Source: a virus
Direction: 5' to 3' (one strand)
Length of the DNA stretch: 45,497 nucleotides
Virus genome (UHGV): UHGV-0106598
Made by a program: the position numbers and the translations under genes. Positions within the stretch are counted from its first letter, which is position 1; every line of letters begins with the position of its first letter. Positions 6,639 through 35,568 of the stretch are shown here, one piece after another. Below the pieces are notes generated by a model. The model saw nothing but the letters and a program-made list of their open reading frames with translations, searched no databases and was not told where the DNA came from.

Positions 6639-6696
6639 CTGTTGGTGAGCCCCAAATCTGATTAAGCGTAATCAATTTTTAGCGACAGGAGACGCT

Positions 6697-7173: not shown

Positions 7174-7175
7174 GC

Positions 7176-9832: not shown

Positions 9833-9833
9833 C

Positions 9834-10281: not shown

Positions 10282-10282
10282 T

Positions 10283-11710: not shown

Positions 11711-11729
11711 ACTAAGTGAGGTCAATATC

Positions 11730-19208: not shown

Positions 19209-19227
19209 TTTTACTTTAGTTGATTAA

Positions 19228-19252
19228 AGCGCCTTTTTCTGGCGCTTTTTTA
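19228..19252 (+). terminator. Rho-independent terminator (AGCGCC-TTTTTCT-GGCGCT followed by TTTTT)
   Basis: Seen in sequence, just after the stop of the 64-aa gene. Confidence 0.6.
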
Positions 19253-19267
19253 TTGCGGATAAACCAA

Positions 19268-19948
19268 ATGGAAAAGCTCTGGGTTTTTACTCAATTAGTT
19301 ACAGGGAAAGATGACACCTCTGGCTTTTTGGCTTACTCGCTTTATAAGCACGACAAAAATGAATATGCCGAGAAGTTGCGCAGTAGTGGCGAATATACAG
19401 AAGACTATATTAACGCCCAACTGAAGATCTTTCATGAGCAGACAGTTAACTCGCCAGGCCGAATTGAGTCTTACAAAGAAAAAGCAGAAGACATCGTCAC
19501 AAACTTAACAGACCAGATAGATGCTGACATCCGGCTTGAGTACGATGCACAGTTAGCCGGTGCTAACTTGCAGGATGTTGAAATAGAACGGCTGAAAGCA
19601 GAAATACAGGCTATGAAAGCATCACGTGAGAACGAGTTAAGGAAGGCTGGAGAGGATGCTATTCTCAATTTTCATCGCATGGTTGAAATCACCCAGGCAC
19701 GCAAACGTGGGCGCGTTTCCCGCTCGTTAGGATGGTACTGGAATGGGTTTGCCAGCATTTTCGCCACAATAACCTTCGCTGTTATTGTCTATGGTATTTG
19801 TACTTGGGCATTACCACAAAAATCCAGAGACGACATTGTGGATGGGGCGTTTAAAAATCTGCAGGGATCGTTATTCCAGCAGCCAAACATTCAGTTTAAT
19901 AAAGACAAAAATGAGAACGCTCAGCAACCTAACACAATTGCCGAATAG
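19268..19948 (+). CDS. Hypothetical membrane-anchored protein (coiled-coil region plus one C-terminal transmembrane segment)
   Basis: Start taken at the internal Met (MEKLW) because the upstream part of the track ORF overlaps the terminator; hydrophobic segment FASIFATITFAVIVYGICTWAL. Confidence 0.4.
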   Translation: MEKLWVFTQLVTGKDDTSGFLAYSLYKHDKNEYAEKLRSSGEYTEDYINAQLKIFHEQTVNSPGRIESYKEKAEDIVTNLTDQIDADIRLEYDAQLAGANLQDVEIERLKAEIQAMKASRENELRKAGEDAILNFHRMVEITQARKRGRVSRSLGWYWNGFASIFATITFAVIVYGICTWALPQKSRDDIVDGAFKNLQGSLFQQPNIQFNKDKNENAQQPNTIAE

Positions 19949-20084
19949 TATCTCCGCGATGCCCCGAAGCCTCACCTTTTCGCGGGACTTTCCTTTCCTG
20001 GTGATTGACATAATTACCAATTTCTGAATACCGTTTTCAACGGTACCGGACACCCAGGTGACGGTGAAACGTGAAGTAAAGGTG

Positions 20085-20103
20085 AAACCCCTCAGAAGAG
20101 GGG
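20085..20103 (-). terminator. Hairpin (CCCCTC-AGAA-GAGGGG) between convergent genes, likely terminating the minus-strand gene
   Basis: Seen in sequence; modestly T-rich tract follows on the minus strand. Confidence 0.4.
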
Positions 20104-20109
20104 CTACTC

Positions 20110-20343
20110 TCACTTCTGCAGTATCTCGCCAATACCTGCCAGATTCTCGTCCATCTTGTCACCGTTTTCGATAAGGATGGAGTTGAGCCGATTCAGTTGC
20201 ATAGCAATTTCAAGTTTGATTAAGGTATCCACCGATACACCAGTTTCTTTCGCTAACTTAGTAAGAGCCGCAGCTCGATTGGCTAAATTAAAATCATCGA
20301 ACTCATAACGACTTCTGCACGGCTGGTTGCCTAACGTACCCAT
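20110..20343 (-). CDS. Hypothetical small protein
   Basis: 77-aa ORF with GAGGAA ribosome-binding site; hairpin after the stop. Confidence 0.4.
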   Translation of the reverse strand: MGTLGNQPCRSRYEFDDFNLANRAAALTKLAKETGVSVDTLIKLEIAMQLNRLNSILIENGDKMDENLAGIGEILQK

Positions 20344-20586
20344 AGTGATTCCTCATGATATAAAGACCCAACAATATAAATTACCAGGCACATCATAAGA
20401 TAGGGTTCCAGCCCATATTTTCAAATATTTGCAAGTATCACCGTTCAGTCTAAAAAGTTGGATGATGATTTAACGAGCCATAACAAAACCCTGCCTCGGA
20501 GGTTTTTTCTTTTTTATAGAACTCAGCGGCGTGAAAACGAATAATAAATTGTGCAAATAATGCAATTTTTATTATTCGAGGTAATT

Positions 20587-21228
20587 ATGAAAACCTTCTA
20601 TGAGGGCTGGCCTGAAACTTTCGTTAGCCGGTTAGATATGTTACGGGCGTTGGATGATCGCGGTTCGACCCGGAGGCTCTATCTTGAGCGGACCGGAGCA
20701 ATATTTGACGCTCTGGCAGAAGAGATACGTACAGCCGTTGCCGGGCACCCTGAAATCGATGTGAGTAAACTCGATATCGGGCCGCTGTATCGCTATTACA
20801 AACGTGGAGAAAAGGGGAATTCGCTGGCTGACTTACTTATTAATTTGGCTCCACCAACCTGTAAACGAGTTCGTATATCCCCTGAAGTGTACACAATCCC
20901 GTATCTGTTTTTTGCACTGTTGATAGCGCAAGGCGCTGACAACGATGCCCGCGATTTTTTCAATATGATGATGCGACCGTTAATCATTGCTTACCGTTTC
21001 AAACAACTGGCGCGCTACCTTGGCACGAAGGGCGGAGGACGGCCACAGCACAGATTAAAAAGCGAAGCCATTGAACTGGCTGATCGTTTTTTTACTGAAA
21101 ACCCGACAGCGCCATTATCGCGTGGTGTGCAATACATATCCGGTATTTTTGTGGCGAAATACTCTGACCCACCTGCAGCGTCGACGATTAGAAAATGGTT
21201 AATTTCAATTTACAGGAGTGATAAATAA
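20587..21228 (+). CDS. Hypothetical protein
   Basis: About 213 aa from the internal Met (MKTFYEGW); no recognised motif. Confidence 0.4.
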   Translation: MKTFYEGWPETFVSRLDMLRALDDRGSTRRLYLERTGAIFDALAEEIRTAVAGHPEIDVSKLDIGPLYRYYKRGEKGNSLADLLINLAPPTCKRVRISPEVYTIPYLFFALLIAQGADNDARDFFNMMMRPLIIAYRFKQLARYLGTKGGGRPQHRLKSEAIELADRFFTENPTAPLSRGVQYISGIFVAKYSDPPAASTIRKWLISIYRSDK

Positions 21229-21341
21229 TGACCATAAACGGTTTAATCCCCTATAAAACCGTTTAATAAAATTCACGACGTGAATATAATTGTTCATTAT
21301 TCCCTCATTGTATCTGGCGTTATGACAAATGCCATAAAATA

Positions 21342-21357
21342 CTGTATAAATATACAG
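21342..21357. promoter_or_regulatory. LexA (SOS) box CTGTATAAATATACAG overlapping a sigma70-like promoter (TGACAA - 16 bp - TATAAA)
   Basis: Seen in sequence: perfect CTGT-N8-ACAG palindrome with AT-rich spacer, 22 bp upstream of a small ORF. Confidence 0.6.
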
Positions 21358-21379
21358 GTTATAGCATTAGGGGGAAGAC

Positions 21380-21559
21380 ATGAATATTCAAGAATCTATA
21401 GGCGAACTACCGGAAACATGCCGGGCTGTTATCAAGCGTAAGGACGGACACATCGTTGGTGTGCGTGTTCTGACCGATGATGAGCGGATTGCCAGCCTGA
21501 TGGCGTTTCTCGAGTTGGCAGAAATAGCTGGATATACTATTACACCCCCTGACGCGTAA
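21380..21559 (+). CDS. Small protein (59 aa) behind the LexA-box promoter; candidate SOS-inducible antirepressor-type gene
   Basis: ORF MNIQESIGELPETCRAVIKRKDGHIVGVRVLTDDERIASLMAFLELAEIAGYTITPPDA, below the 60-aa cutoff of the supplied track; GGGGGAAG ribosome-binding site. Function is inferred from context only. Confidence 0.4.
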   Translation: MNIQESIGELPETCRAVIKRKDGHIVGVRVLTDDERIASLMAFLELAEIAGYTITPPDA

Positions 21560-21636
21560 AACACGGTATAATATCGGTGCTGGATTGAACACCCGGCACC
21601 ATTTTCTGAACACTGCCGCGCCACCTGGAGTTAACC

Positions 21637-22233
21637 ATGGCGCAGCATTCATTTATCAGGGTATCCGGCGGTTCGCTAATACCCGCGACACCAGACACGC
21701 AACGCTGGTTGACTGAACGAGTCAAACCAGGTGCTGTTGTGTATGCAGATTTCAAACAGGCACGCAATCCCGCGTTTCACCGTAAATTTTTCTCACTTCT
21801 CAACCTGGGCTTTGATTACTGGCATCCGTCCGGAGGGGCTATTTCTCCTGCGGAGCGCGAACTGGTTCACGGCTACGTTAAGTTACTGGCGTATTACGGT
21901 GGACACGGTGATGTCATGGCAGAGCTGGCTGATCAGTATCTTCTCGATGAGTCGGAAAAGCGCGCGGGGAATATCAGTGCGGTGAAGTCGTTCGAGGCGT
22001 TTCGCGCATGGGCGATTATGGAAGCTGGGTTTTATGACGTTCATCAGATGCCAGACGGCAGTTTGATGCGCGTACCTCGTTCAATCTCGTTTGCTGCGAT
22101 GGACGATCTTGAGTTCGGTCAACTGTATTCAGCCGTTTTAGATGTGCTGTGGAATTATATTTTGTTCCGCACGTTTGCCTCTCAGGAGGCCGCTGAAAAT
22201 GCTGCCGCGCAGCTGCTGGATTACACATCATGA
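21637..22233 (+). CDS. DUF1367-like lambdoid phage protein
   Basis: 198-aa ORF at the nin-region position before the YbcO-like and Q-like genes; family assignment from recalled pattern only. Confidence 0.4.
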   Translation: MAQHSFIRVSGGSLIPATPDTQRWLTERVKPGAVVYADFKQARNPAFHRKFFSLLNLGFDYWHPSGGAISPAERELVHGYVKLLAYYGGHGDVMAELADQYLLDESEKRAGNISAVKSFEAFRAWAIMEAGFYDVHQMPDGSLMRVPRSISFAAMDDLEFGQLYSAVLDVLWNYILFRTFASQEAAENAAAQLLDYTS

Positions 22234-22523
22234 AAAAAATCGACCTGAGAAAAGCTGCACGTGGTCGCGCTTGTACTGTGCGTATCCCCGGTGTGTGCAA
22301 TCACAATCCTGAAACCAGCGTACTGGCTCATTATCGTCTCGCCGGAACGTGCGGCACAGCCATCAAACCTCACGATATGCAGGGCGCTATCGCCTGTAGT
22401 GCGTGTCACGATGCCATCGACGGACGTACAAAAACGGATTACGGGCACGACTCATTGTTGTTGATGCACGCTGAGGGAGTTTTCAGAACACTGGCTATCT
22501 GGCGCGATGAGGAGTTTATCTGA
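22230..22523 (+). CDS. YbcO-like (DUF1364) putative nuclease with Cys/His cluster
   Basis: KAARGRACTVRIPGVCNHNPETSVLAHYRL ... IACSACHDAIDGRT closely matches the recalled YbcO sequence. Confidence 0.6.
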   Translation: MKKIDLRKAARGRACTVRIPGVCNHNPETSVLAHYRLAGTCGTAIKPHDMQGAIACSACHDAIDGRTKTDYGHDSLLLMHAEGVFRTLAIWRDEEFI

Positions 22524-23194
22524 TGAGTAACGAGTATTTATTGGAATATACCCGCATAAAACTGCGCGCTGCATTGCGGGATTTATCTGGTGGTTCTAAG
22601 GGGCAACTGGAAGCATTGTGTGAGCACCCACCGGCAGACAAAAACGCATACCCACGCAAACATATTCACCGTGTGCAGCTGGAGGACCGGACCGTTGATG
22701 CTCTGGTTACGCCAGTTTACGCTCTGGAAAGTTTCAGCAGACGTCGCCCCGCGCCGCCGATGAGTGATTTTGAATTTGCTGATTCATCCTGGCGGCGTTC
22801 TGTGAACTCGCTGGATGCAAGTCAGCAAGCGTGGTTGCGTTATTGCTACGGTGGTAACCTGGCATTCAAACACCAAACAGCTATTTGTGAGGCTGTCTGG
22901 AGTCGCTATAAAGGAAACATCCCCGCGTCAACTCAGAGAAAAGTAGTTAAGCGCCTGCTTTCGTTGGTGTGGTTGTCCGTGCAGGCGGTCGCAGCATCAA
23001 ATAAACGCGAGGATTTTAAGGAGATGGCCGGATCTGCGCTAGCTGGAATGTTGTCTGTTTCTCGTTCCACCTGGTGCGAAACATACTCCCCGCACTGGGC
23101 AGGAATGAAAGAGGCGGTGAGAGCACTTGATGAAGTGGCACTTCTTGCAACTTTGCATCATTATCAAAACCATTTAGACGACGTTTGCGTATAA
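22523..23194 (+). CDS. Putative late-gene antiterminator (Q-like) by position
   Basis: 223-aa ORF immediately upstream of the lysis cassette; no motif verified. Confidence 0.4.
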   Translation: MSNEYLLEYTRIKLRAALRDLSGGSKGQLEALCEHPPADKNAYPRKHIHRVQLEDRTVDALVTPVYALESFSRRRPAPPMSDFEFADSSWRRSVNSLDASQQAWLRYCYGGNLAFKHQTAICEAVWSRYKGNIPASTQRKVVKRLLSLVWLSVQAVAASNKREDFKEMAGSALAGMLSVSRSTWCETYSPHWAGMKEAVRALDEVALLATLHHYQNHLDDVCV

Positions 23195-23306
23195 TGCTTG
23201 CAAAACCGAACAAAATAGGCCATATTTAACGCTAATTTGGTATATTGCCAAATTTCTAAGAACCTCGCCACGGCGGGGTTTTGTCGTTTCTGAATCAGGA
23301 AAAATC

Positions 23307-23690
23307 ATGTCTGAACCTCTAACCGCTGGCGTTGCTGCTGGCTCGGCGGGGGTGACGTTTGCTGCGTTATTTCCTGAGGCAACACCTGCAGTGATGATCT
23401 GTGCGCTGGCAGGCGCAGCTCTCTATGTGTTGTCATCCGGGCAGCATCGATTCTGGAAGCAGGTTATTTTCGCACTCATTTCGTTTGTTGGCGGTGTGTA
23501 TTGCGCTGAGACAGCGTCAGCAATCATTACCGGTATTCTGAACGCGGTGCTGAGTCACCTGAACCCTCCCGTAACAGTAAAAGTCTCTCCCGCCATTGGT
23601 GCACTGGTTGCATCAGTAATCAGCGTTACATCACTGTTGCGGATCATGTCACAAGCTCGTTTATGGAAATCAGATAAGGGGATGAAATAA
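23307..23690 (+). CDS. Holin-like membrane protein
   Basis: 127-aa ORF with multiple hydrophobic helices, first gene of the lysis cassette. Confidence 0.5.
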   Translation: MSEPLTAGVAAGSAGVTFAALFPEATPAVMICALAGAALYVLSSGQHRFWKQVIFALISFVGGVYCAETASAIITGILNAVLSHLNPPVTVKVSPAIGALVASVISVTSLLRIMSQARLWKSDKGMK

Positions 23691-23962
23691 TGACCCTGCA
23701 CTCTGTCCTCATCAATGCCAATGCAATTATCTGTCTGATGCTGGCACTGCGGTTAATGTTTTTTCAAAAAACAGGCCGCTATCGTTTTTTCATCTCACTA
23801 ACTGCTTACCTGGCGATTCTGTCTGCTGCGTGGATAGCCCTACGAATTTTTTACGGGAAATATACGCAGGTTGATCCCGCAGAGTTCTTTCTCAACCTCA
23901 CCATCTGTATTGCTGTCTGGCGGGCACGAGGGAATATTTCAAAAATAACAGGAGACAGGTAA
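23690..23962 (+). CDS. Second small membrane protein of the lysis cassette (holin/antiholin-like)
   Basis: 90-aa ORF with about 3 hydrophobic segments, coupled to the neighbouring genes. Confidence 0.4.
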   Translation: MTLHSVLINANAIICLMLALRLMFFQKTGRYRFFISLTAYLAILSAAWIALRIFYGKYTQVDPAEFFLNLTICIAVWRARGNISKITGDR

Positions 23963-24441
23963 TGACCGATCCTAAATGGCTAATTGAGGCTCGAAAAAAC
24001 CTCGGCATTCGGGAAATGAAAGGGAAGCAACATGCTGCGGAAATTGTGCAGTACTGGAAAGATATCAAACGCGGCGGCATTAAGGATGACGAAACACCGT
24101 GGTGCGCTGCTTTCACCGGGGCAATGCTGGAACGTGCGGGTATTCGCTCAACGCGTTTTGAGTCTGCGAATTCTTATCTCGATTGGGGTAATGAACTGAA
24201 GGAACCCGCCTATGGATGCATTGCTATTCTGTCTCGGTCTGGCGGTGGTCACGTCGGCTTTGTTGTCGGGAAAAATGCCGCCGGGGATTTAATGATTTTG
24301 GGGGGCAACCAGGCAGATGAAGTAAATATCAAAGCTTTTCCTCGTTCCCGCGTAACAGGCTACCGCTGGCCAGCAGGTCAAACGGATGTTCCACAATCAC
24401 TTCCATTGGTGAATGCTGAGAAATCTATCTCAGAAGCGTAG
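23962..24441 (+). CDS. Endolysin, CHAP/NlpC-P60-like peptidase type
   Basis: ETPWCAAF (catalytic Cys context) and GGHVGFVVG (His context) as in CHAP-like amidases/peptidases; lysis-cassette position. Confidence 0.5.
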   Translation: MTDPKWLIEARKNLGIREMKGKQHAAEIVQYWKDIKRGGIKDDETPWCAAFTGAMLERAGIRSTRFESANSYLDWGNELKEPAYGCIAILSRSGGGHVGFVVGKNAAGDLMILGGNQADEVNIKAFPRSRVTGYRWPAGQTDVPQSLPLVNAEKSISEA

Positions 24442-24448
24442 GTAAAAC

Positions 24449-24643
24449 GTGAAAAAACTTCTCTTAGCTGTCGCGTTCTTCACGCTGGCAGGCTGCACAC
24501 ATTCGACATACACCGAAGCGACTCGCGCTGACGGCAGCAGTATTAAACACGTGATGATCGCGCCGGGTACGAAGATTACTACTGCGAACGGTGGTTGTAT
24601 TGATTCAACCGGGGCAGAGGCTTCATGCCTTGGTGGAAAATAG
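24449..24643 (+). CDS. Small lipoprotein, possibly an outer-membrane spanin component
   Basis: Signal peptide with lipobox LAGC; 64 aa; directly after the endolysin. Confidence 0.45.
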   Translation: MKKLLLAVAFFTLAGCTHSTYTEATRADGSSIKHVMIAPGTKITTANGGCIDSTGAEASCLGGK

Positions 24644-24702
24644 GGTAATTTACTTTAACGAGAGGCCGCCTTTTTGTTTTAAGGCGGCACACATTCAACA
24701 GA

Positions 24703-24963
24703 TTAAGGTAACTGATTTGACCATTTTGTTGCGCGCCAGTTGTTCTGAACCATAATCTTCTGAAGTATCTCATCTGAAGGCTCTGCTTCGCCGCTTAGCC
24801 ATTCTCTTAAAGTTGAACAATTTAGATAAGAGGAGTTCGCACGATAAAAAGATACGATGGCGTCCTCTGATAACTTCTCAGGAAACTTTTTTGGGTCAGC
24901 TTCTTTTAATATTACGCTCATTAAGGCTTCAATTTTTTCTCTGTTCATTTTTTGCGTTCTCAT
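24703..24963 (-). CDS. Hypothetical protein on the opposite strand between lysis and packaging modules
   Basis: 86-aa ORF in a locally AT-rich patch; a GC stem-loop lies between it and the lipoprotein gene. Confidence 0.3.
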   Translation of the reverse strand: MRTQKMNREKIEALMSVILKEADPKKFPEKLSEDAIVSFYRANSSYLNCSTLREWLSGEAEPSDEILQKIMVQNNWRATKWSNQLP

Positions 24964-25316
24964 GGTTGTTGTTTTTCTGTAATGATATCAATAAGTTCAA
25001 GATATATACATATATGGAAAACTTGTTCGGTAGTCTATCGATACAGCACAAAAGGATGGCTCGCTGCCAAAGTGAAAGCTTACGCTGATAATCAGATACA
25101 CAAAGCTGATGTATGCAAACAAGTACGCCGCGAGGCTACAGTTGAGTTTGATGAACCTGATGCGAGCCCCTAATTCCTGTCCTGAAAGGGAGATAGCCCC
25201 CTGGTCGCGGGTCCTTTCCGAAATCCAAAACACCGAGGGTCGGTAGACGCGCAAAAACTCACTCATTTTTAGTATTTTTTCATTTTGGGTATTTCCGGTT
25301 CCGGTGAGGATTTTTA

Positions 25317-25883
25317 ATGGCAAGTCAGGCTGAGGTCGCAGCACATTTACTGCTATCTGATCGTCGTCTGCGCGATCTCGCAAAACTTCCGGGAGCTCCA
25401 GTCCCACAGGGACGTGGCGATTGGGACCTTGATGCCTGGCGCCATTTTTATATTCATTATCTCCGGAGTAATAGACGCGACACAATTGGTACTGACGAAC
25501 CGGAAGTGGGGGACAATTCTCCCGAAAAAAATCGCGAGCAGTGGCTGAAAAATGAGGAACGACAGGAGCGAATCCTGATGGCACGAGTAAAACGCCGCAT
25601 TCTCGCTAAACGCTACGCGCCAATTGAATTAATTAGCGTTGCTGTATCTCGCGTCGCCGTTGAATTACGTACCCGCGTCGAGTCGTGGCCACCACGATTG
25701 AAAAAGGTGTGGCCTGAAATGCCGCAGGAGGCGAGCAGTGTATTACGAGAGGAGCTGGCGATAGCCCTGAATGAACTGGCAGACATACGAGTCGACTTCA
25801 GCGATTACGATGTCAGCGATATCGAACGCGATCTCGACAGGGTTGAATCCCTTGCGCGTGACGATACCGATGACGGGGGTTAA
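25317..25883 (+). CDS. Terminase small subunit (Nu1-like by position)
   Basis: 188-aa ORF immediately upstream of and overlapping the large terminase; GAGGA ribosome-binding site; N-terminal HTH-like segment. Confidence 0.55.
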   Translation: MASQAEVAAHLLLSDRRLRDLAKLPGAPVPQGRGDWDLDAWRHFYIHYLRSNRRDTIGTDEPEVGDNSPEKNREQWLKNEERQERILMARVKRRILAKRYAPIELISVAVSRVAVELRTRVESWPPRLKKVWPEMPQEASSVLREELAIALNELADIRVDFSDYDVSDIERDLDRVESLARDDTDDGG

Positions 25884-27732
25884 GTGGGCTGATAAATATT
25901 TTTATCTCCCTGAGGGCTCCAGCCACATCGCTGGCCACTGGACGACTCAGCCGGTCCAGGTAGTGATGCTCAATATGATGACTAACGACGCGATAAAAAT
26001 CGTGTCTGTTCGCAAATCAGCTCGTCTCGGTTATACAAAAATACTCGTCGCGGCGCTGCTCTATTTCGCTGAGCACAAAAAACGTAGTGCCGTGGTCTAT
26101 CAGCCTATCGATGACGAATCGGATGGATTTGTCGCCGATGAGGTTGACCCCGCTATCGCCGAAATGCCGGTGATTCAGAAAATTTTCCCCGACTGGGATA
26201 AAAGCAACGAGCGTAACAATCTCCAGCGTAAAGAAATGAACGGCGCGATTATTGATTTTCGCGGCGCGAGTACGCCAGGAAATTTCCGGCGACTAACGAA
26301 ACAGGTTGTCGAGGGTGACGAAGTTGACGGCTGGCCGCTGGAAGTTGCCAAAAAAGGCAAAGGCGAGGGCTCGCCCATCGAACTGGCGCTCGTTCGAATT
26401 AAAGGGGCAGCGTACCCGAAGGCGATTTTCGGTTCGACACCGACAGTCACCGGTAAAAGTCATATCGAAATGTTGGAAGACGCTGCTGATCTGACATTTC
26501 GTTTTTACCTGAAGTGTCCGCATTGTAGCGAGGAGCAGACCCTGGTATTTGGTTTCGACGGTATCGAATACGGTCTCAAGTGGGATGACAGCCTGCAGAC
26601 CAACGAGTCGAAATCGTCGTCCGCGTATTACCAGTGCTGCCACTGCCCGGAGCATTTTTACTATCGCGATCTCGAAAAAATGGAGCTCGGGGGGCGCTGG
26701 ATAGCCGAGGACTGCACCTGGACCCGAGACGGAATCCATTTTTTTGATCATGACGGTGGCGTCGTTCGCGCGCCGAAACACGCGGCGATCGTGATAAACG
26801 CCCTGTATTCACTGAATCTCGACGGCTGGGGCGAGATTGTCAGCGAGTGGCTGAAAGCGAAGGGCGAACCACTCAAAGAAAAAACGTTTCATAACACTAC
26901 GCTCGGCGAACTCTGGAGCGAAGTGGCCAGCGAGCAGCTGGAACACGATATTCTCGTTAATCGCCGGGAAAGATACGCCAGCCAGGTTCCTGACGGTGTT
27001 GTTTATATAACTGGCGGCATCGACTCTCAGACGTCCGGGCGCTACGAGTGTTACGTGTGGGGCTGGGGAGCCGAGGAGGAGTGCTGGCTGATTGATAAAA
27101 CAATCGTCCTCGGTCGCTACGACGAGGAGGATACGCTGCAGCGCGTCGACGGCGTGATTCGCAAACAATACCGGCGCAGCGACGGGACCACAATCGGCGT
27201 CAGTCGCTGGGCGTGGGATACCGGCGGCATAGATGCGCAGGTCGTTTATAACCGCTCGCTGAAACTCGGTCCGCTGTGGGTCATTCCAATCAAGGGCGCG
27301 AGCTCATACGGCCAGCCGGTCGTAAATATGCCTCGTACCCGTAACGCGAATAAAGTGTATTTGTCGTTGATTGGGACAGATACAGCGAAAGACCTGCTCG
27401 CAATGCGCCTGCAGCTGGAACCCGACTCCAAATCGGCGACACCAGGTGCGATTCATTTTCCCAACGACGACGAAATATTCAGCACGACAGAGGCAAAACA
27501 GCTCGTCTCCGAGGTTCTGATCCCGAAACTCATTAACGGTCGCGTCGTTTATCGTTGGGACAACCAGGGCCGGCGAAATGAGGCGCTCGACTGCTGGGTG
27601 TACGGACTGGCAGCGCTGCGTATCAGTAAAATTCGTTTCCAGCTCAATCTCGAGACGCTCGCTGAGCAACGGAAAAAATCACAAAACAAACTGTCTCTCG
27701 AGGAGATGGCCAGAATGCTCGGAGGGAGCTAA
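25771..27732 (+). CDS. Terminase large subunit, lambda gpA-like
   Basis: VKWADKYFYLPEGS ... VSVRKSARLGYTKILVAALLYFAEHKK aligns with recalled lambda gpA (VEWADANYYLPKES ... KSARVGYSKMLLGVYAYFIEHKQ), with further C-terminal matches. True start may be an internal Met at about 25810 or 25870. Confidence 0.9.
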   Translation: MNWQTYESTSAITMSAISNAISTGLNPLRVTIPMTGVKWADKYFYLPEGSSHIAGHWTTQPVQVVMLNMMTNDAIKIVSVRKSARLGYTKILVAALLYFAEHKKRSAVVYQPIDDESDGFVADEVDPAIAEMPVIQKIFPDWDKSNERNNLQRKEMNGAIIDFRGASTPGNFRRLTKQVVEGDEVDGWPLEVAKKGKGEGSPIELALVRIKGAAYPKAIFGSTPTVTGKSHIEMLEDAADLTFRFYLKCPHCSEEQTLVFGFDGIEYGLKWDDSLQTNESKSSSAYYQCCHCPEHFYYRDLEKMELGGRWIAEDCTWTRDGIHFFDHDGGVVRAPKHAAIVINALYSLNLDGWGEIVSEWLKAKGEPLKEKTFHNTTLGELWSEVASEQLEHDILVNRRERYASQVPDGVVYITGGIDSQTSGRYECYVWGWGAEEECWLIDKTIVLGRYDEEDTLQRVDGVIRKQYRRSDGTTIGVSRWAWDTGGIDAQVVYNRSLKLGPLWVIPIKGASSYGQPVVNMPRTRNANKVYLSLIGTDTAKDLLAMRLQLEPDSKSATPGAIHFPNDDEIFSTTEAKQLVSEVLIPKLINGRVVYRWDNQGRRNEALDCWVYGLAALRISKIRFQLNLETLAEQRKKSQNKLSLEEMARMLGGS

Positions 27733-27965
27733 TGACGTCGCGCGAGGTTTTAACAGAACGACTGCTGGAAGCGGAAATCGCTCTGCACAAATTATTAACG
27801 GGTAAATCGACCGTGTCGCTGTCTCACGGCGATTCAGCAGGAAATAACCGGAGCTATCAATACTCGCAGGCGAGTATTGAGCAGCTCCGAACGTACATTA
27901 TCGAGCTGAAATCACAGCTCGGTCTGAGTACGGGACGCCGTCGGCCCGTGGGAGTTCGATTATGA
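27732..27965 (+). CDS. Head-tail joining protein, lambda gpW-like
   Basis: 77-aa ORF; LHKLLTGKSTVSL ... EQLRTYIIELKSQLGLSTGRRRPVG parallels recalled lambda W. Confidence 0.8.
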   Translation: MTSREVLTERLLEAEIALHKLLTGKSTVSLSHGDSAGNNRSYQYSQASIEQLRTYIIELKSQLGLSTGRRRPVGVRL

Positions 27966-29536
27966 CTGCTCCGCAGCAGCTGCTCGGGCCTGACGGTAAA
28001 ACGCCACTACGCCGTTACGCGGGGTATAACGGCGGCGGTCCCGGTTTCGGTGGCCAGCTGATTGACTGGAACGCACCACAGCAGAGCGCCGACGCAGCAC
28101 TGTTGCCGAATTTTTATCGCGGTAACGCGCGAGCAGACGATCTCGTTCGCAATAACGGCGTCGCGTCGAACGCCGTGCAGCTGCACCAGGATCATATCGT
28201 CGGCAATCTGTTTAAGTTGAGTTATCGCCCTAACTGGCGTTACCTCGGCATATCTCGCGAGGACGCCAGGGCGCTGGCGCGTGACGTCGAGGTAGCGTGG
28301 ACTGAATACGCCGAGGACCCTCACTGCACGATTGATATCGAGCGGAAACGGACGTTCACAATGATGATCCGCGAGGGCGTGGCTACTCACGCTTTCAACG
28401 GTGAAACCTGCGTACAACCAGTCTGGGAGAGTAGTGCCGGCAGCGTTTTTCGGACGCGATTCAAAATGGTCTCACCGAAACGGATTCGAAATCCGGGTTA
28501 CGCAGCTGACACTCAATTTCGCCGCGCCGGTGTTGATATCGATAAAAACGGGGCCGCGGTCGGGTACTGGATAGCCGAGGATACTTACCCTCTCGGCGGA
28601 GTCGGTAAATGCCGGCGTATCCCAGCATAGCTCAGCAGCGGCAGACACGCATTCATCCACATATTCGAGCCGCTCGAGGACGGACAGACCCGCGGGGACA
28701 ATATTTTTTACAGCGTCATGGAGCGCCTGAAAATGCTCGACACACTGCAGCAAACACAACTGCAGAGCGCCATTGTGAAGGCGATGTATGCCGCGACAAT
28801 CGAATCAGAGCTCGACAGCCAGCAGGCGTTTGAATATATCGCCGGCGCGGGTACTGATATCGACTCGAACCCGCTGAATTCGTTTATTCAGAGTTACGTG
28901 ACGTACTACAACGGCGCAAATATCAAGCTCGGTGGTGTGAAAGTTCCCCACCTGCATCCCGGCGACAAACTCAGTTTACAGACCGCTCAGAATGCTGATG
29001 CTGGTTTTAGTTCACTGGAAAAATCACTCCTGCGTTACGTTGCAGCTGGCGTTGGCGCGTCATACGAAGAACTTAGCCGGGACTACAGCCAGGTCAGTTA
29101 CTCCAGCGCCCGGGCCAGTGCTAACGTCAGCTGGCGATTTTTCATGGGGCGTCGACGTTTTATCGCCGCGCGACAGGCGTCGCTGATGTTCTGCTGCTGG
29201 TTTGAAGAGGCGCTGGCACGCGGAATTATCACCCTGCCACGCTCAGCTGTCCGGTCGTTTTATGAGGCGCGGAACTCCTGGACGAACGCGCTCTGGATCG
29301 GCGCTGGTCGCATGGCGATTGATGGGCTGAAAGAGGTTCAGGAGAGCGCCATGCGCATCACAACTGGCCTCAGCACGTATCAGAACGAACTGGCGCTGCA
29401 GGGACAGGATTACGAGGAGGTTATGGAGCAGCAGGAATACGAAATTCAGCGCCGGCGTGAAATGGGGCTGAGCGAACCGTCATGGTCTGTATCTCACCCC
29501 TCAAATACCAACGATAACGGCTGGGGAGGTAACTGA
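27962..29536 (+). pseudogene. Portal protein gene (lambda gpB-like) interrupted by one in-frame TAG at 28628-28630
   Basis: Track ORFs 27962-28630 and 28718-29536 are in the same frame; translation right after the TAG continues LSSGRHAFIHIFEPLEDGQTRGDNIFYSVMERLKMLDTLQ, matching recalled lambda gpB (FIHVFEPVEDGQTRGANVFYSVMEQMKMLDTLQ) with no other stop. Confidence 0.85.
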
Positions 29537-30843
29537 TGCCGTGGAACAATTTTCCGCACCTCGCCGCCAGGGCGTTCAATCAACCGCTTTTGCTGGAGCC
29601 CACCTACGCGCGGGTATTTTTTTCGGCGCTGAGCGACCGGTTCGGTACCGGGCGACTGATTGATACAGCGTCTGGAGAGGTAATGAACAGCGACGAAATG
29701 AACGCGCTCGCGATGGGGTGGGACAGCAGCGAGCGAACACGCCAGAAATCGTATCGCGTGGAGCGTGGTATAGCCGTTCTGCCGGTTACCGGGACGCTGG
29801 TTCATAAATTGGGTTATATCAACCCAGTTAGCGGGATGAGCGGTTACGACGGAATCGCAAAACGCCTGCAGCAGGCGATTTCTGATCCCGATGTAAGAGG
29901 GGTCCTGCTTGATATTGACTCCCCTGGCGGTGAAGTCGCCGGCGCGTTTGATACTGCTGATTTAATCGCCCGGGCGCGAGAGCAAAAACCTGTGTGGGCG
30001 CTGGCCAGCGATACGGCCTGCAGCGCTGCCTATTTGCTGGCGTCAGCGTGTTCGCGCCGGCTGATAACGCAGACAGGCACAGTTGGTTCAATCGGTGTCC
30101 TGATGGCTCACCGCTGCGTCGAAAAAGCGCTGGAGATTGCTGGCGTCGACGTGACGCTGATTTACGCCGGCGCGCACAAAGTTGACGGGAACCCGTATTC
30201 CCAGCTGCCAGGCGACGTTCGCGACGAATTCCAGCTGAGTATTAACAGCACGCGCGAGCAGTTCGCGCAAAAAGTCTCGGATTATACCGGGCTGAAAAAA
30301 TCCAGGGTGCTGGCCACGGAAGCTGCAGTATTTATCGGCGCGGACGCGATTAAATCTGGTCTCGCTGATCAACTCGTTAATTACGCGGACGCTATCGCAG
30401 TGATGGCCGACGCACTGAAACCAAAAATGGAGCGCTTTATGTCTGGTACAGAAACCACGGCGGAGACCACGACCACAGAACAAACCGCGACCACGACTAC
30501 TGTCGCGCAGGTTGAGTTTAACACGGAGCAGATTCGCGCGGACGCCGCATCAAGCGAACTGGCGCGTGTGATGGCCATCATCAATTGTCCCGAAGCTGTT
30601 GGGCGCGAGGCGCAGGCAAAAGCGCTCGCTGGCGTCCCCGGGATGACGGTCGGGCAGGCGCAGGTAGTCCTCGCTGCAGCACCTAAAACGGCGCAGGCGC
30701 GGACAGAAACGGCGCTCGATACACTAATGAGCACTGAATCACCAGCGACTATTCAGGATGCTGGCAGTACTACGGCAACAGGAACAACCGCAAACGTCTC
30801 GATGCTGGTTGCTGCAGGGCGTTCAATTTTAGGGGATGAATAA
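29536..30843 (+). CDS. Head maturation protease / scaffold (lambda gpC-like, S49/ClpP-type peptidase)
   Basis: 435-aa ORF after the portal gene; peptidase-like core (LLDIDSPGGEV ... SAAYLLASAC); lambda head gene order. Confidence 0.8.
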   Translation: MPWNNFPHLAARAFNQPLLLEPTYARVFFSALSDRFGTGRLIDTASGEVMNSDEMNALAMGWDSSERTRQKSYRVERGIAVLPVTGTLVHKLGYINPVSGMSGYDGIAKRLQQAISDPDVRGVLLDIDSPGGEVAGAFDTADLIARAREQKPVWALASDTACSAAYLLASACSRRLITQTGTVGSIGVLMAHRCVEKALEIAGVDVTLIYAGAHKVDGNPYSQLPGDVRDEFQLSINSTREQFAQKVSDYTGLKKSRVLATEAAVFIGADAIKSGLADQLVNYADAIAVMADALKPKMERFMSGTETTAETTTTEQTATTTTVAQVEFNTEQIRADAASSELARVMAIINCPEAVGREAQAKALAGVPGMTVGQAQVVLAAAPKTAQARTETALDTLMSTESPATIQDAGSTTATGTTANVSMLVAAGRSILGDE

Positions 30844-31172
30844 TGACTACAGAAACGTATAGCCCGGACGATTTTATTCTTGGGCCTGACCTTGTTGTCA
30901 CGACCGTCGGTCATTTTCAGGGCGGGATCAACGTACCCCGGCTGACACCGATTATGCTCGACGCTACTGTCGGGACGTTTAAGGTTTGGGACGGCTCAGT
31001 CGGTAAAGCTATTGGCCTCACTGCCACCGCAGTTAATACTGGCTCCAGTTCTGCAGACTGCTCGTACTATAAATCAGGCTCGTTCCGTTACACGGCGATT
31101 AACTGGGGTACGGTTACCGACGTAGCTAAACGCAAATCAGCATTTGCGGGTACGCCGATCAGCGTCGGCTGA
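30843..31172 (+). CDS. Head decoration protein, lambda gpD-like
   Basis: 109-aa ORF; MLDATVGTFKVWDG ... YYKSGSFRY ... KRKSAFAGTPISV parallels recalled lambda D. Confidence 0.8.
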   Translation: MTTETYSPDDFILGPDLVVTTVGHFQGGINVPRLTPIMLDATVGTFKVWDGSVGKAIGLTATAVNTGSSSADCSYYKSGSFRYTAINWGTVTDVAKRKSAFAGTPISVG

Positions 31173-31191
31173 TAGCAAAAAACTCAAAACA

Positions 31192-31214
31192 AGCCGCCTC
31201 CGGGCGGTTTTTTT
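31192..31214 (+). terminator. Rho-independent terminator-like hairpin (GCCGCC-TCCG-GGCGG followed by TTTTTTT) between the decoration and major capsid genes
   Basis: Seen in sequence. Confidence 0.55.
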
Positions 31215-31230
31215 ATAACAGGATATATAA

Positions 31231-32265
31231 ATGAGCGATTCGTTTACTACGTCAGAACTGATTACCGCGACACAGCAGGTATTTAAGTTCAATCCGTTGT
31301 TTTTAAAGCTGTTTTTCCGTGAGACCTACACGTTTACGAGCGAAGAGGTTTTTCTGGATAAAATCCCGGGAAAAGTGAACATGGCCGTGTACTGCGCGCC
31401 GATGATCACCGGCAAAGTTGACCGCACTCGCGGCTATTCAACGAACCATTTCAAACCGGGTTACACGAAACCCAAGCACACGATCAATCCGAATATGAGC
31501 ATCAAGCGCGCAGCCGGTGAGCAGATTGGCCAGCCGGAAACGCCGGTCGAACGTCGTGCAAAAATCATCATGCAGAACCTGCTTGATGAGGAACTGAGCA
31601 TCAGCCAGCTCGAAGAGTTCCAGGCGGTACAGGCTGTTCTGTACGGTAAATACACTGTTTCCGGCAGCAATATCGAGACATATGAGATCGACATGAGCCG
31701 CAGCGCGACGAATAACGTCACTCAGTCCGGTTCGACAGCCTGGTCGACTCAGGACGCGGAAACGTATGACCCGAGCGACGATATTGAATCCTACGCGGAC
31801 CTCGCCTCCGGTGCGGTTAACGTGATCATCATGGATGGTAAAGCCTGGAAGCAGTTGAAGCGTTTTAAAAAATTCTGGACGGCACTGGATACGCGCCGTG
31901 GCTCAAACAGCCAGCTCGAGGTCGCGCTGAAAAACCTGGGCGACGTTGTCAGCTTTAAAGGCTACTACGGCGACACTGCGCTGTTTGTCTACAAAGGGCA
32001 ATACCTCGACCCGGTAACAGATACTGAAACGCGTTATATGCCGGATAACACGATGATCCTTGGCAACACAAAAAACCGCGGGCTCCGCACTTATGGCGCA
32101 ATTCAGGACGAAGACGCGCTGAAAGAGGGTATTTCCGAAGCGACGCGCTATCCAAAAGTCTGGACCACTACCGGTGATCCGGCAGTGACGCAAACAATGA
32201 CGCAATCCGCGCCAGCAATGGTCCTCACGGACGCCGACGCGTTCGTTGTCGTAAAAATCGCGTAA
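31231..32265 (+). CDS. Major capsid protein, lambda gpE-like
   Basis: 344-aa ORF aligning along its length with recalled lambda E (FKFNPLFLKLFFRE ... KPKH ... DTRRGSNSQLE ... GLRTYGAIQD ... RYPKVWTTTGDP). Confidence 0.9.
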   Translation: MSDSFTTSELITATQQVFKFNPLFLKLFFRETYTFTSEEVFLDKIPGKVNMAVYCAPMITGKVDRTRGYSTNHFKPGYTKPKHTINPNMSIKRAAGEQIGQPETPVERRAKIIMQNLLDEELSISQLEEFQAVQAVLYGKYTVSGSNIETYEIDMSRSATNNVTQSGSTAWSTQDAETYDPSDDIESYADLASGAVNVIIMDGKAWKQLKRFKKFWTALDTRRGSNSQLEVALKNLGDVVSFKGYYGDTALFVYKGQYLDPVTDTETRYMPDNTMILGNTKNRGLRTYGAIQDEDALKEGISEATRYPKVWTTTGDPAVTQTMTQSAPAMVLTDADAFVVVKIA

Positions 32266-32299
32266 GAGTCGAAAGGCTCTTTTTTGTTAAGGAATCAAC

Positions 32300-32719
32300 A
32301 TGAGCACAAAAACAGAATTGCTGGCGCGTATTGACGATATGAGCGCTCAGCTCGGTCGCGAATTACCGCGCTGCGGGACTATTGCGGAACTGGAATCAAT
32401 CGTTGCCGGCGCTGAGTCAGAGCTCGATATTCTGAACGAGCAATCCGGTGACGCGGGAGGCATCGAGATTACAGTGAATACTGCGTCCGGGACCGATAAT
32501 GAACTCGCTCAATCAATCGCGAGCGCTATCGTTTCACAGTCACAAGAGCAGGAGCTCGCACCGGCTACGCGCCGCGTCAAGTTGCGTAACACGCTGGACG
32601 TTTATCACTACGTGAACGGGCGTCGCGTTCGCGAGATTGTTGCCGCAGGCCGTGAAATTGTTGTTGATTCACCGGAGGTCGCAGACCTTATCGCAGCTGA
32701 TCACGTTTACGCTCTATGA
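32300..32719 (+). CDS. DNA packaging/head protein, lambda gpFI-like
   Basis: 139-aa ORF; N-terminus MSTKTELLARIDDMSAQLGRE resembles recalled lambda FI; conserved position after the capsid gene. Confidence 0.5.
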   Translation: MSTKTELLARIDDMSAQLGRELPRCGTIAELESIVAGAESELDILNEQSGDAGGIEITVNTASGTDNELAQSIASAIVSQSQEQELAPATRRVKLRNTLDVYHYVNGRRVREIVAAGREIVVDSPEVADLIAADHVYAL

Positions 32720-33096
32720 GCTACTACGATGACCTCCGGGCCGGCGACGAGGAGATGATCCGTGAGTGGGGACGGCCCGTTAAATTACGCGGTAAAACCG
32801 ACCCCATTATCGCTATTTTCAACGAGCCTTACGCGCGCGTTGACGTTCCTCACGCTGGTTTTATTACCGGTACAGTAACGAGCCTGACGGCGCTCTCGGA
32901 CGACGTCGCTGGCGTTGTTGCGCGTGACGTCGTCCAGGTTCCAAAGCAGCGCAGCATCGAACCTGACGGCTCTGTTACCTGGTCTGGCTGGACCGATTAC
33001 GTGGTTAAAGAGCCTCAACCTGATGGCACAGGGCTCACGAATATTTTTTTAGAGCCTCACACGTCCAGCGAAAACAGCGAGTATTCAAAATACTAA
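32716..33096 (+). CDS. Head completion / head-tail joining protein (FII-like by position)
   Basis: 126-aa ORF overlapping the upstream stop; position after the FI-like gene. Confidence 0.4.
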   Translation: MSYYDDLRAGDEEMIREWGRPVKLRGKTDPIIAIFNEPYARVDVPHAGFITGTVTSLTALSDDVAGVVARDVVQVPKQRSIEPDGSVTWSGWTDYVVKEPQPDGTGLTNIFLEPHTSSENSEYSKY

Positions 33097-33127
33097 GTGG
33101 GACCTCGGTCCCACTTAAGGGGGAACC

Positions 33128-33808
33128 GTGGCCGATTTACGTAGTAACGCGCAGATGTTCGATATCGATGTTTCGGCGCTGGAGCAGCTCAGAGTCGAAA
33201 TCAGCGCGACGCAACATCAAATGTTAATGGTATACAACAGGGCGCTGAACCGAACTGCAAAACATATGCACCGAATTTCAGCAGGAATGATTTTGACTGC
33301 ACTGGCAGCTAAAAATCATAAGGCCGTAGATAAACGAATCAAGCCGTTCATTAAGCGCCGTAATTTTACAAAAGAAGGGGCAGGAGACCTGAGCAGCGCC
33401 AAGCTCTGGTACGGTCTGAATGATTTCCGGGTATCTGAGCTAAAGGGGCGATTACAAAATCCACGGAGGCAAAAACAGCCTCGCGATCTTGAGACCGGCC
33501 TGTTTTTGAAAACCAAAAAAGGCGCTAGAGGGGCAACTTTTACACCCAAAAGTGCAGGGCTGGCGATGATGAGTTGGCCCGATTCATTCGTAGCGAAACG
33601 CTACGGTGCGAAAAGTGTCTGGATTCGACTGGATCGCGGAGGAATCGAAGAGGCTCGCGTACCTGTGCACGACGCGCTGGAGGATGCTATCGATGATTAT
33701 ATTTTTGAAAACATTGGCCCTGTTTTTATGGGCTTTTTTGAGAAAGATTTGCGCGGTCGCGTGAAAGGTAATGTCCACGTAGACCCAAAAACAGGTAAAC
33801 GATTATGA
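33128..33808 (+). CDS. Hypothetical virion protein at the head/tail junction (adaptor or tail completion candidate)
   Basis: 226-aa ORF between head and baseplate modules; no motif recognised. Confidence 0.3.
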   Translation: MADLRSNAQMFDIDVSALEQLRVEISATQHQMLMVYNRALNRTAKHMHRISAGMILTALAAKNHKAVDKRIKPFIKRRNFTKEGAGDLSSAKLWYGLNDFRVSELKGRLQNPRRQKQPRDLETGLFLKTKKGARGATFTPKSAGLAMMSWPDSFVAKRYGAKSVWIRLDRGGIEEARVPVHDALEDAIDDYIFENIGPVFMGFFEKDLRGRVKGNVHVDPKTGKRL

Positions 33809-34341
33809 GCGGACTGGATGCATTTGACGAATATCTTGATCGCGTTAAAGGCGCGGTTTTACAAATACCGTTCATCAAAACATTCGGAATTTATCCGGAA
33901 ATTCCGGCTGGATTTGAAACGCCAGCTCTGTTCCTGGAAATCAGCAACTGGTCACAGAGTGACGAATCGGTTCCAGGCTCAATTCAGTCAGTCGAGCTGT
34001 CGTGTAATTTGTATTTGCTGCGTGAATTTGCAGCTGATCAGTACGGACTGAAATCGCAGAATGCAGCGCTCTATATGACGAGCTGGATCAATGGGCGAAT
34101 GTTCGGTCCCGGAACTAAACCGGCAAAATTCAGCGACGCGGAACCGTGCGACTGGATTAAAAACGGGCAGTCAGTCGGTTCGCATTCAGTTCAGTGCGTG
34201 TCGTTCACGCAGGTTGTAGGCGTTGGTCCAGATATTTTCGATTATCCCTCACAGGGGACCCTGAAAAATATATACGTCGGAATAGCACCAGATATCGGCG
34301 CAGAACATGAGGGCGACTATTATGGCCCAATCGGACGATGA
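33805..34341 (+). CDS. Hypothetical virion protein at the head/tail junction
   Basis: 178-aa ORF overlapping neighbours; position only. Confidence 0.3.
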   Translation: MSGLDAFDEYLDRVKGAVLQIPFIKTFGIYPEIPAGFETPALFLEISNWSQSDESVPGSIQSVELSCNLYLLREFAADQYGLKSQNAALYMTSWINGRMFGPGTKPAKFSDAEPCDWIKNGQSVGSHSVQCVSFTQVVGVGPDIFDYPSQGTLKNIYVGIAPDIGAEHEGDYYGPIGR

Positions 34342-35224
34342 ATATGCTGCAGCGGAGAACGCGCGCAGGCTGCGTGACGCAGTTAAACGCGGCACGATAG
34401 CTGCAGTTAAAATGAATCCTCCACGCTGCCGAGTCTCATTTGGTGGCGAACACCAGTCAGGCTGGCTGCAGTGGTTTACTCACGCCACCTCAGAACGCGT
34501 CGACTGGAGCGCACCATCAGTGGGCGATCCCGTTACTGTTGTTTCTGAGGGTGGGGATACGCGGAACGGTGTAGTTATGCTCGGGCTGCACATTGACGAC
34601 AAAGCTCCGCCAAGCAATGACCCCCATGATCATGTCACTGCATACTGTGACGGGGCTACGATGACGTATAACACAAAAAATCACACTCTGACATGGCAGG
34701 GCGTACCGGACGGCGTGGTAAAAATACTCGGTGAGTCTGAAATAGAAATATTTGGACGCGCAGATGTTACTATTAATAGCGAAAATGTAGTTAATATCCA
34801 TGGTGGGAAATTAATTAACGCAGACGCTGATATTATTAATGTCACAGCGACAGATACAATTAACGCACATGCTGATTTAGTGAACGTTATAGCAACGAGT
34901 TCTGTTAGTGTTACTGCTGCGAACAGAATATCGCTGACAGCTCAAACAATCAGCGCGTGGGCTCCGGGTGGTATAACACTAGCTGGTCCAACGCATATTA
35001 CCGAGACATTAGTAGTAGATAAATTAGCGACATTCCGTAACGATATTTCTGTCACTGGAGATAACGGTGGAACAGGTAATATCACAACTCGCGGTAGTGT
35101 GTTAGCAGGGCAAGAGGTGCAGGACCGACAAGGCACAATGACTGAGGTCCGCACAACGTACAACGGACACACTCATATATGTCCGGACGGGGAAACACAA
35201 CAACCGAACCAACCAATGGCGTAA
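34307..35224 (+). CDS. Baseplate central spike protein (P2 gpV-like)
   Basis: 305-aa ORF; N-terminal gpV-like region, repetitive beta-helix-like stretch and C-terminal apex YNGHTHICP. Confidence 0.7.
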   Translation: MRATIMAQSDDEYAAAENARRLRDAVKRGTIAAVKMNPPRCRVSFGGEHQSGWLQWFTHATSERVDWSAPSVGDPVTVVSEGGDTRNGVVMLGLHIDDKAPPSNDPHDHVTAYCDGATMTYNTKNHTLTWQGVPDGVVKILGESEIEIFGRADVTINSENVVNIHGGKLINADADIINVTATDTINAHADLVNVIATSSVSVTAANRISLTAQTISAWAPGGITLAGPTHITETLVVDKLATFRNDISVTGDNGGTGNITTRGSVLAGQEVQDRQGTMTEVRTTYNGHTHICPDGETQQPNQPMA

Positions 35225-35226
35225 AT

Positions 35227-35568
35227 ATGCTTGGAATGGACCGTAACACCGGTAAGCCTTTATCGGGGACTGATCACATTTGTCAGTCTATCGTTGATAT
35301 TTTAACGACCCCGCTGGGAACCCGTGTAATGTTGCCGGAATACGGCAGCAAATTATTTGACCTCGTTGATAATCCCACTGATCCGTCGCTTGCTATGAGA
35401 ATAATAATGGAAAGTGCAGGAGCAATAGCACGCTGGGAACCACGCGTCAGAATTGACAGAATAAATGTGTTAGCAGTGGACATCGGGAAAATAACAATAT
35501 TAATTATCGCAACAGATATCGAAACACAACAGCGATTAGAGTTTAATAATATGGAACTGATATTTTGA
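35227..35568 (+). CDS. Baseplate protein (P2 gpW / gp25-like)
   Basis: Start taken at the internal Met (MLGMDRNTGK); conserved order V-W-J-I. Confidence 0.65.
   Translation: MLGMDRNTGKPLSGTDHICQSIVDILTTPLGTRVMLPEYGSKLFDLVDNPTDPSLAMRIIMESAGAIARWEPRVRIDRINVLAVDIGKITILIIATDIETQQRLEFNNMELIF

Follow-up and report, generated by a model that had tools for sequence, protein, structure and literature searches.

Introduction

Can a prophage that otherwise looks complete still form virions when the reading frame of its portal gene is interrupted by a single amber codon? The question is raised by a stretch of 45,497 nucleotides, all of it analyzed here and referred to as the window, in which a lambda-like head module carries such a stop in the gene for its portal protein. 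The answer reached below is that the window is very probably a complete-looking 45.5-kb temperate prophage of an O83:H4/ST4456-related lineage of Escherichia coli, which has been disabled by the portal amber and is now inherited passively. The lesion itself is already known: PGAP/RefSeq annotate the gene as a pseudogene, and it is an ordinary knockout of a prophage by a point mutation.

The portal gene and its amber codon

A single frame of 525 codons extends from the ATG at 27962 to the TGA at 29534-29536, and translation of 27962-29536 reveals a sole internal stop, at codon 223. The TAG at 28628-28630 lies in the context ...CCA GCA TAG CTC AGC..., in frame with the ATG at 27962. When the stop is read through, BLASTP aligns the product with lambda gpB at 321 of 505 positions (64% identity) with 0 gaps. 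The first-pass annotation, made from the letters of the sequence, had held that the two open reading frames on either side of the TAG are one frame, collinear with gpB over its full length, and the alignment bears this out. With the stop entered as X, the amber position falls on the Glu of lambda IPRELPGGR, which is encoded by GAG in lambda. The Glu of PRELPGG that had been placed opposite the stop is therefore correct for lambda, but in the phage family of the window the residue was ancestrally Gln (CAG).

The profile of the portal family PF05136 (Phage_portal_2), for which the gathering cut-off is 32.9 bits, is matched by the N-terminal half from profile position 3 to 189 of 354 with 140.5 bits and by the C-terminal half from position 216 to 354 with 120.7 bits. 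The repaired protein covers positions 3-354 in one run, with 305 bits. Both halves thus belong to the same family, and the possibility, raised earlier, that they might align to different proteins falls away. The solved structure of the lambda portal, 8k38, also matches the portal product (phmmer, E = 6e-220), as do 8k39, 8xot and others. By family, then, the gene is a portal gene, as judged from PF05136, its collinearity with gpB and its position in the head cluster; what it lacks is an uninterrupted frame for the whole protein. Because of the TAG at codon 223 it is regarded as a pseudogene of the PF05136/gpB family rather than a functional member.

The nature of the change is clear from comparison with an intact allele. 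The uninterrupted portal gene of ON470604, 1575 nt in length, is identical to the window copy at 1574 nt, with no indels, an agreement that lies far outside chance. The sole difference is T for C at 28628, which turns CAG (Gln) into TAG. A point nonsense change without decay by indels had been proposed at first reading, and exactly one mismatch to the intact gene is what is found. One substitution relative to an intact allele, 0 indels and recurrence across independent assemblies make this a simple nonsense pseudogene. Deamination at a Dcm hotspot was considered as the cause of the C-to-T change and rejected: the context, CAGCA[C]AGCTC, is without CCWGG, so the change is not at a classical methyl-cytosine amber hotspot.

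Distribution of the TAG allele

A 71-nt probe centered on codon 223 was searched against 5426 complete E. coli genomes. It matched 425 of them, with CAG exact in 415 and TAG exact in four, A42, EC28, ECO20 and ECO21. These four were independently sequenced and stem from three studies and two continents; in each of them PGAP has labeled the gene ‘phage portal protein, internal stop’. ECO20 and ECO21 belong to ST4456, O83:H4, and are hybrid Nanopore and Illumina assemblies (PMC11184858). The window has T at 12644, where A42, EC28, ECO20 and ECO21 all have C, and so represents a fifth copy of the TAG prophage.

An exact-match search for the truncated product of 222 aa placed it on 335 contigs, drawn from NCBI, ENA and Logan (579 index blocks). 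Among them are an ENA metagenome scaffold (L012) and an NCBI draft genome (L013), both with TAG. A pattern scan of metagenome contigs carrying the portal found two, one with TAG (L024) and one with CAG, and a pattern scan of IMG/VR found the portal on five viral contigs, with CAG in all five. Since TAG recurs in independent assemblies, it is not a read error, and since CAG is nearly universal among the relatives, conserved recoding is excluded. Exclusion of a sequencing error and comparison with related prophages were two of the checks proposed with the first-pass annotation; the codon came through the first, with four independent complete assemblies, the window and hundreds of contigs in agreement, and the second yielded the 415 CAG and four TAG genomes among 425. 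The C-to-T nonsense mutation in the portal gene is real and inherited.

The prophage around the portal gene

The prophage is integrated between glyW-cysT-leuZ and yecA (Table 1). It is flanked by a direct repeat of 89 nt, which after one mismatch extends for a further 35 nt, and the attL copy of this repeat begins 69 nt before window position 1. In the early half, the integrase is followed by early genes, repressor and Cro-like regulators, RepO and helicase, an accessory region, Q, holins and endolysin. The head module contains, in order, small and large terminase, W, portal, S49 peptidase, D, E, FI and a gene like FII. The tail module is of the P2 contractile type and comprises baseplate genes V/W/J/I, fiber, sheath, tube, E, tape measure, U, X and D.

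By annotation the integrase, the att repeats and the genes for replication, Q, lysis, terminase, capsid and tail are intact, and PGAP reports no second pseudogene inside the prophage in A42, EC28 and ECO20, the copies without an insertion. With the rest of the prophage unbroken, the case for a defective prophage rests on one suppressible codon. The amber may have a further effect within the head operon. The TGATG overlap between the end of the portal gene and the start of the next gene suggests that translation of the S49 peptidase may be coupled to that of the portal, and a stop 900 nt upstream may then lower the coupled translation of the peptidase gene.

Table 1. Features of the prophage and of its interrupted portal gene, in window coordinates.
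Feature	Position	Strand	Basis
Whole prophage, between tRNA-Leu (leuZ) and yecA; lambda-like head, P2-like contractile tail	1..45497	.	
Tyrosine integrase, left prophage end, intact	117..1133	-	converted from L007 39291-40307
Large terminase ORF (gpA-like), intact	25771..27732	+	PF05876 and PF20454 in the identical locus L012
gpW-family head-tail joining gene; stop overlaps portal start (ATGA)	27732..27965	+	
Portal gene (lambda gpB family), a pseudogene through a single amber codon	27962..29536	+	frame, gpB alignment, PF05136, PGAP
N-terminal portal ORF, 222 aa, product expected without suppression	27962..28630	+	ORF list, PF05136 3-189
Amber codon TAG, codon 223, from CAG (Gln) via C-to-T at 28628	28628..28630	+	sole mismatch to ON470604
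C-terminal portal remnant, predicted ORF, same frame, 272 aa	28718..29536	+	ORF list, PF05136 216-354
S49 peptidase (lambda gpC-like); ATG overlaps portal TGA (TGATG)	29536..30843	+	
Head decoration and major capsid genes (gpD-like, gpE-like), intact	30843..32265	+	
attR copy of 89-nt (+35-nt) direct repeat duplicating 3' part of tRNA-Leu	45443..45497	+	

Probable consequences of the lesion

One mark of a defective prophage is that a gene needed to form virions has been inactivated, and the nonsense codon in the portal is a lesion of this kind. From established lambda-type head assembly we infer a loss of virion production, along the following lines. A single C-to-T transition has made codon 223, once CAG (Gln), a TAG. 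Where the host has no suppressor, translation would end after 222 of 524 residues and more than half of the portal fold would be gone, with the stem, clip and crown presumably among the lost parts. If no portal dodecamer forms, DNA would not be packaged into proheads and tails would not be joined to them. The prophage would probably still excise, replicate and lyse the cell, but would release no infectious particles. The TAG allele probably arose once, in an ancestor of this prophage variant, and has been carried passively with the chromosome thereafter. The prophage would then be at the earliest stage of decay, in which reversion of one base, or marker rescue by a related phage, could restore function. 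It had been stated at the outset that without a portal no heads can be made unless the amber is suppressed. That would follow, and no suppressor was present where one was sought, in the window and at glnV/glnX of A42 and ECO20.

Suppression and read-through

The alternative that survives best is that the amber is leaky or conditionally suppressed, by a suppressor tRNA or through read-through by a near-cognate tRNA-Gln, with a virion yield that is lowered and not abolished. It is unlikely, although a number of observations would fit it. Att sites, integrase and the remainder of the prophage are unbroken, only 12 portal subunits are needed per head, and the allele, with its 335 contigs, is widespread. 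The base at +4 after UAG is C, not the termination-enhancing U. The ancestral residue, Gln, is the one inserted at UAG in suppressor-free E. coli, according to the title of a paper on the subject (Nilsson and Ryden-Aulin, 2003, cited in PMC5289835).

A source of suppression was sought in both phage and host. ARAGORN found no tRNA genes in the 45,497-nt window, and hence no phage-borne CUA suppressor. The glnX-glnV operon was located by synteny in A42 and ECO20; both tRNA-Gln(CUG) genes are wild type, with the CTG anticodon, and a supE-type suppressor (glnV or glnX with CUA) was thus not found in the two hosts checked. An exact supE allele is present in 155 complete genomes, of which the matches listed are K-12 laboratory strains. 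Megablast detected no second lambda-family portal in A42; with one megablast-detectable portal only, this host has no close paralogue that could complement the broken gene. Background read-through of UAG is usually well below 1%, and the classical lambda B amber mutants leak so little that they can be used as conditional lethals, both of which argue against a productive leak. The five viral contigs of IMG/VR, all with CAG, also count against a leaky amber, though even together with the two metagenome contigs they are too small a sample for a conclusion on viral particles.

Age and spread of the allele

When the window, A42, EC28 and ECO20 were compared, nine variable sites were found in 45,497 nt, with pairwise differences of two to six. 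It follows that the allele was already present in their common ancestor and is not brand new. If typical E. coli substitution rates apply, its age may be roughly estimated as decades to centuries. The view that the gene had been inactivated recently, put forward on first inspection, needs qualifying to this extent: the allele is fixed in a lineage that has been sampled in Australia, in China and in a metagenome, and its copies have come to differ by up to 6 SNPs per 45.5 kb. Among those copies the ratio of non-synonymous to synonymous changes is 4:3.

The four complete TAG genomes have the same prophage at the same leuZ-yecA site, in related backgrounds of the O83:H4 type with a common fliC allele. 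Among complete genomes, the combination of this early region with this late region occurs only in these four. The late module alone (21.5 kb) is found at 99.9% identity in genomes outside the exact-TAG four, and at 97.5% in many ST131 genomes. Single copies have acquired later lesions, as expected for a dead element: ISKox3 is inserted in the ECO21 prophage, the portal of EC28 carries an R137H change, and the prophage of the draft genome is interrupted by the satellite described below.

The divergence of prophage and host bears on whether the amber phage has moved between hosts. Between A42 and the Chinese strains, host DNA sampled to the left of the prophage, to its right and 1.2 Mb from it has diverged by 0.32%, and the prophage by 0.013%, a contrast of about 25-fold on raw SNPs. 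Between EC28 and ECO20, flank and prophage divergence are equal, at about 0.012%. The raw contrast suggests that the prophage is younger than the split between the hosts, and the much lower divergence of the prophage in A42 versus EC28/ECO20 would be in keeping with a leaky amber. Were leaky spread true, it would account for the roughly 25-fold lower divergence between a marsupial isolate from Australia and clinical isolates from China. The host SNPs are strongly clustered, however, a pattern left by imports through recombination. Counting SNPs that lie less than 1 kb apart as single events, a crude correction for recombination, left 26 host events in 133 kb against 6 prophage events in 45.5 kb (p = 0.26), and the contrast was gone. 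The divergence data were accordingly not counted in support of horizontal spread of the amber phage. Vertical inheritance in a recombining clonal frame is not rejected by the collapsed counts and is taken as the default. The location of all four complete-genome copies at one chromosomal site, in related hosts with the same fliC allele, also runs counter to the leaky amber.

Selection, error and recoding

The loss of heads might itself have been beneficial. A domesticated prophage of this kind could release free contractile tails, in the manner of a tailocin, or the 222-aa fragment could poison the heads of superinfecting phages, in which case the Q protein of related superinfecting phages would switch on the late operon of the prophage. 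The P2-like tail module is complete, and the allele persists with no other lesion in three of the five copies. A divergence of 6 SNPs or fewer in 45.5 kb nevertheless leaves too little time for a lack of decay to signal selection, and the 4:3 ratio of non-synonymous to synonymous changes is uninformative. Apart from the portal, the head genes are as intact as those of the tail, which the tailocin model does not predict. Selected domestication is accordingly very unlikely. It is likewise distinctly unlikely that the amber phage is alive through Gln read-through or a host suppressor and spreads inefficiently among related E. coli lineages, or else persists as a headless, tailocin-like source of tails.

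An error of sequencing or assembly, with CAG as the true codon and the gene intact, would be in keeping with a single-base substitution and with CAG in 415 relatives, but the chance of it is close to nil when the identical TAG stands in four complete genomes, the window, the ENA scaffold, the NCBI draft and a metagenome contig, when its product occurs on 335 contigs, and when two of the genomes are hybrid assemblies of Nanopore and Illumina reads (ECO20 and ECO21; PMC11184858). Programmed recoding, with UAG as a conserved read-through or regulatory stop of this portal family, has nothing in its favor beyond the in-frame stop itself and can be given practically no weight: 415 of the 425 complete genomes have CAG and lambda has GAG, an Rfam scan gave no match to any element in or near the portal gene, and E. 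coli uses the standard code.

A satellite in the same portal gene

The draft genome L013 has an amber-bearing portal gene that is also split at about codon 275-277, roughly position 240 of the Pfam profile. The insert resembles a PICI and carries integrase, AlpA, Bro-N, primase, SSB, capsid, decoration and Nu1-like genes. A lambdoid prophage of APEC O2-211 shows the same portal junction, and related junctions are present in dozens of complete genomes. The integration site, at about 28786-28790 in the window, falls within 28652-28804, the only part of the gene with DNA-level conservation across about 2500 genomes. Helper-embedded PICIs (HE-PICIs) are known to integrate at site B:Phage_portal_2:241 (Tommasini, Mageeney and Williams, 2023; PMC10111431). 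The L013 satellite was considered as a new element and this was rejected, for it matches the published class at that site; the junction is known biology.

Significance

As part of a defective prophage, the lesion matters little beyond annotation hygiene. It does illustrate that a prophage called intact by gene-content tools can be disabled by one base, so that inducibility is not readable from gene content alone. The lesion persists in a lineage sampled across two continents, although a single reversion, or recombination with one of its 99.9%-identical relatives, would be enough to give a live phage. If the amber phage were transmissible after all, it would provide a natural leaky nonsense allele that tunes virion yield, which would be of moderate interest to phage biologists.

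Comparison with known systems

One intact allele of the same portal is that of ON470604, ‘vB_EcoM-720R5’, which shares 1574 of 1575 nt of the portal gene and differs in having CAG at codon 223. This and similar GenBank ‘phage’ records were considered as evidence for inducibility and set aside, as they are computational prophage predictions from clinical isolates rather than phages that had been isolated. Genomes of ST131 O25:H4 have intact alleles of the same portal, again with CAG at codon 223, and over the 21.5 kb of the late module the prophages with intact alleles show 97.5-99.9% identity.

Phage lambda is more distant. Its gpB has 64% identity over 505 residues, and the gene order terminase, W, B, C (S49 peptidase), D, E, FI is shared. 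The window differs from lambda in that its portal frame is broken at codon 223 and its tail is of the P2 contractile type, in contrast to the siphovirus tail of lambda.

The HE-PICIs interrupt the same gene by other means. Their site is unoccupied in the window, where the lesion is a nonsense codon 160 nt upstream and not an insertion.

With cryptic prophages in general the window shares a lesion in one structural gene, vertical persistence, and hits by an IS element and a satellite in some copies. It differs in being at a very early stage, with one lesion that is reversible by a single base.

A laboratory counterpart is the classical lambda B amber (Bam), a conditional lethal in which one amber codon likewise lies in the portal gene. 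Such a codon is predicted to block head assembly and DNA packaging but to leave tail production intact. As with Bam, supE is predicted to rescue the window portal, here by insertion of Gln, which would restore the wild-type sequence exactly. Unlike Bam, the window allele is natural and fixed in a wild bacterial lineage with no evident suppressor host.

Satellites in the portal gene

In a draft genome whose prophage carries the TAG-bearing portal gene (locus L013; NCBI GCA_903975365.1), this gene is additionally split by a satellite, inserted 160 nt downstream of the TAG. The satellite, estimated at about 11 kb by comparison with that of E. coli APEC O2-211 (L016), encodes an integrase, AlpA, Bro-N, a D5-type primase, SSB, an E-like capsid protein, a D-like decoration protein and a Nu1-like small terminase. 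It fits the published class of helper-embedded PICIs (HE-PICIs), site B:Phage_portal_2:241 (PMC10111431). The counterpart of the insertion site in the window is free of any insert.

A segment of about 150 nt, which encodes ...LDTLQQTQLQSAIVKAMYAATIESELD..., is the sole part of the portal gene matched by megablast at 82-86% identity in approximately 2500 other E. coli genomes, and the HE-PICI attachment site falls within it. A closely related satellite is present in APEC O2-211 (NZ_CP006834.2), with 93.5% identity over the junction; there a true lambdoid prophage has its portal gene cut by the satellite, leaving two partial pseudogenes in the annotation. The portal/integrase junction appears to be present in dozens of complete E. 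coli genomes, with 48 records matching at 90-95% identity; some of the 42 records at 95-99% identity possibly have it as well.

Divergence of prophage and host

The prophage of A42, from an Australian marsupial, differs from those of EC28 and ECO20, from Chinese patients, at 4-6 of 45,497 sites, whereas the sampled host DNA differs by a mean of 0.32%, with strongly clustered SNPs. The comparison set the whole window against the host flanks (loci L007, L008, L010, L011, L015 and L017). Once SNP clusters were collapsed the gap was not significant, and the history of the prophage may be horizontal or vertical.

Changes in single copies and database records

Two changes are each confined to one copy. 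An ISKox3 element (ISL3 family) lies within the accessory region of the ECO21 prophage, and is a secondary hit to a defective prophage. EC28 has a further non-synonymous change, R137H, in a portal gene that is already stopped.

The PGAP annotations of the large terminase differ in start site and name among A42 (624 aa), EC28 (585 aa) and ECO20 (640 aa), the longest ORF being 653 aa; the sequences are identical, and the discrepancy is one of annotation. Four GenBank records of about 20-27 kb (ON470596, ON470604, ON470624 and ON470627; L001), named 'Escherichia phage vB_EcoM-...' and labelled complete genomes, are prophages predicted computationally from clinical isolates (bioRxiv 10.1101/2022.06.29.498070). 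They contain odd product names, such as 'ATP synthase F0 sector subunit b' for gpW.

Coordinates of the features discussed
Feature	Sequence	Position	Remark
isrK Hfq-binding RNA	window	11494-11568	Rfam
C4 antisense RNA	window	11593-11679	Rfam
Accessory region	window	12904-21228	~8 kb, between replication genes and Q
SMEK_N-domain protein	window	14593-15492	opposite strand
ISKox3	L006 (ECO21)	11504-12724	window ~21350
Large terminase	window	25771-27732	
R137H	window	28371	EC28
Conserved portal segment	window	28652-28804	
Counterpart of insertion site	window	~28786-28790	
Split portal gene	L013	10829-20669	
Portal gene split by related satellite	L016	15305-27803	

Accessory region and regulatory RNAs

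The accessory region may carry defence or moron cargo. It encodes a SAM-dependent methyltransferase and a SMEK_N-domain protein whose N-terminal domain fits the PADLOC model of an Argonaute-associated effector; five other proteins encoded there had no match in Pfam or PADLOC. Elsewhere in the window, a gene for an ORF6N-domain protein lies directly downstream of the isrK and C4 RNAs, an arrangement that resembles the immI-type antirepressor control module of P1 and P7.
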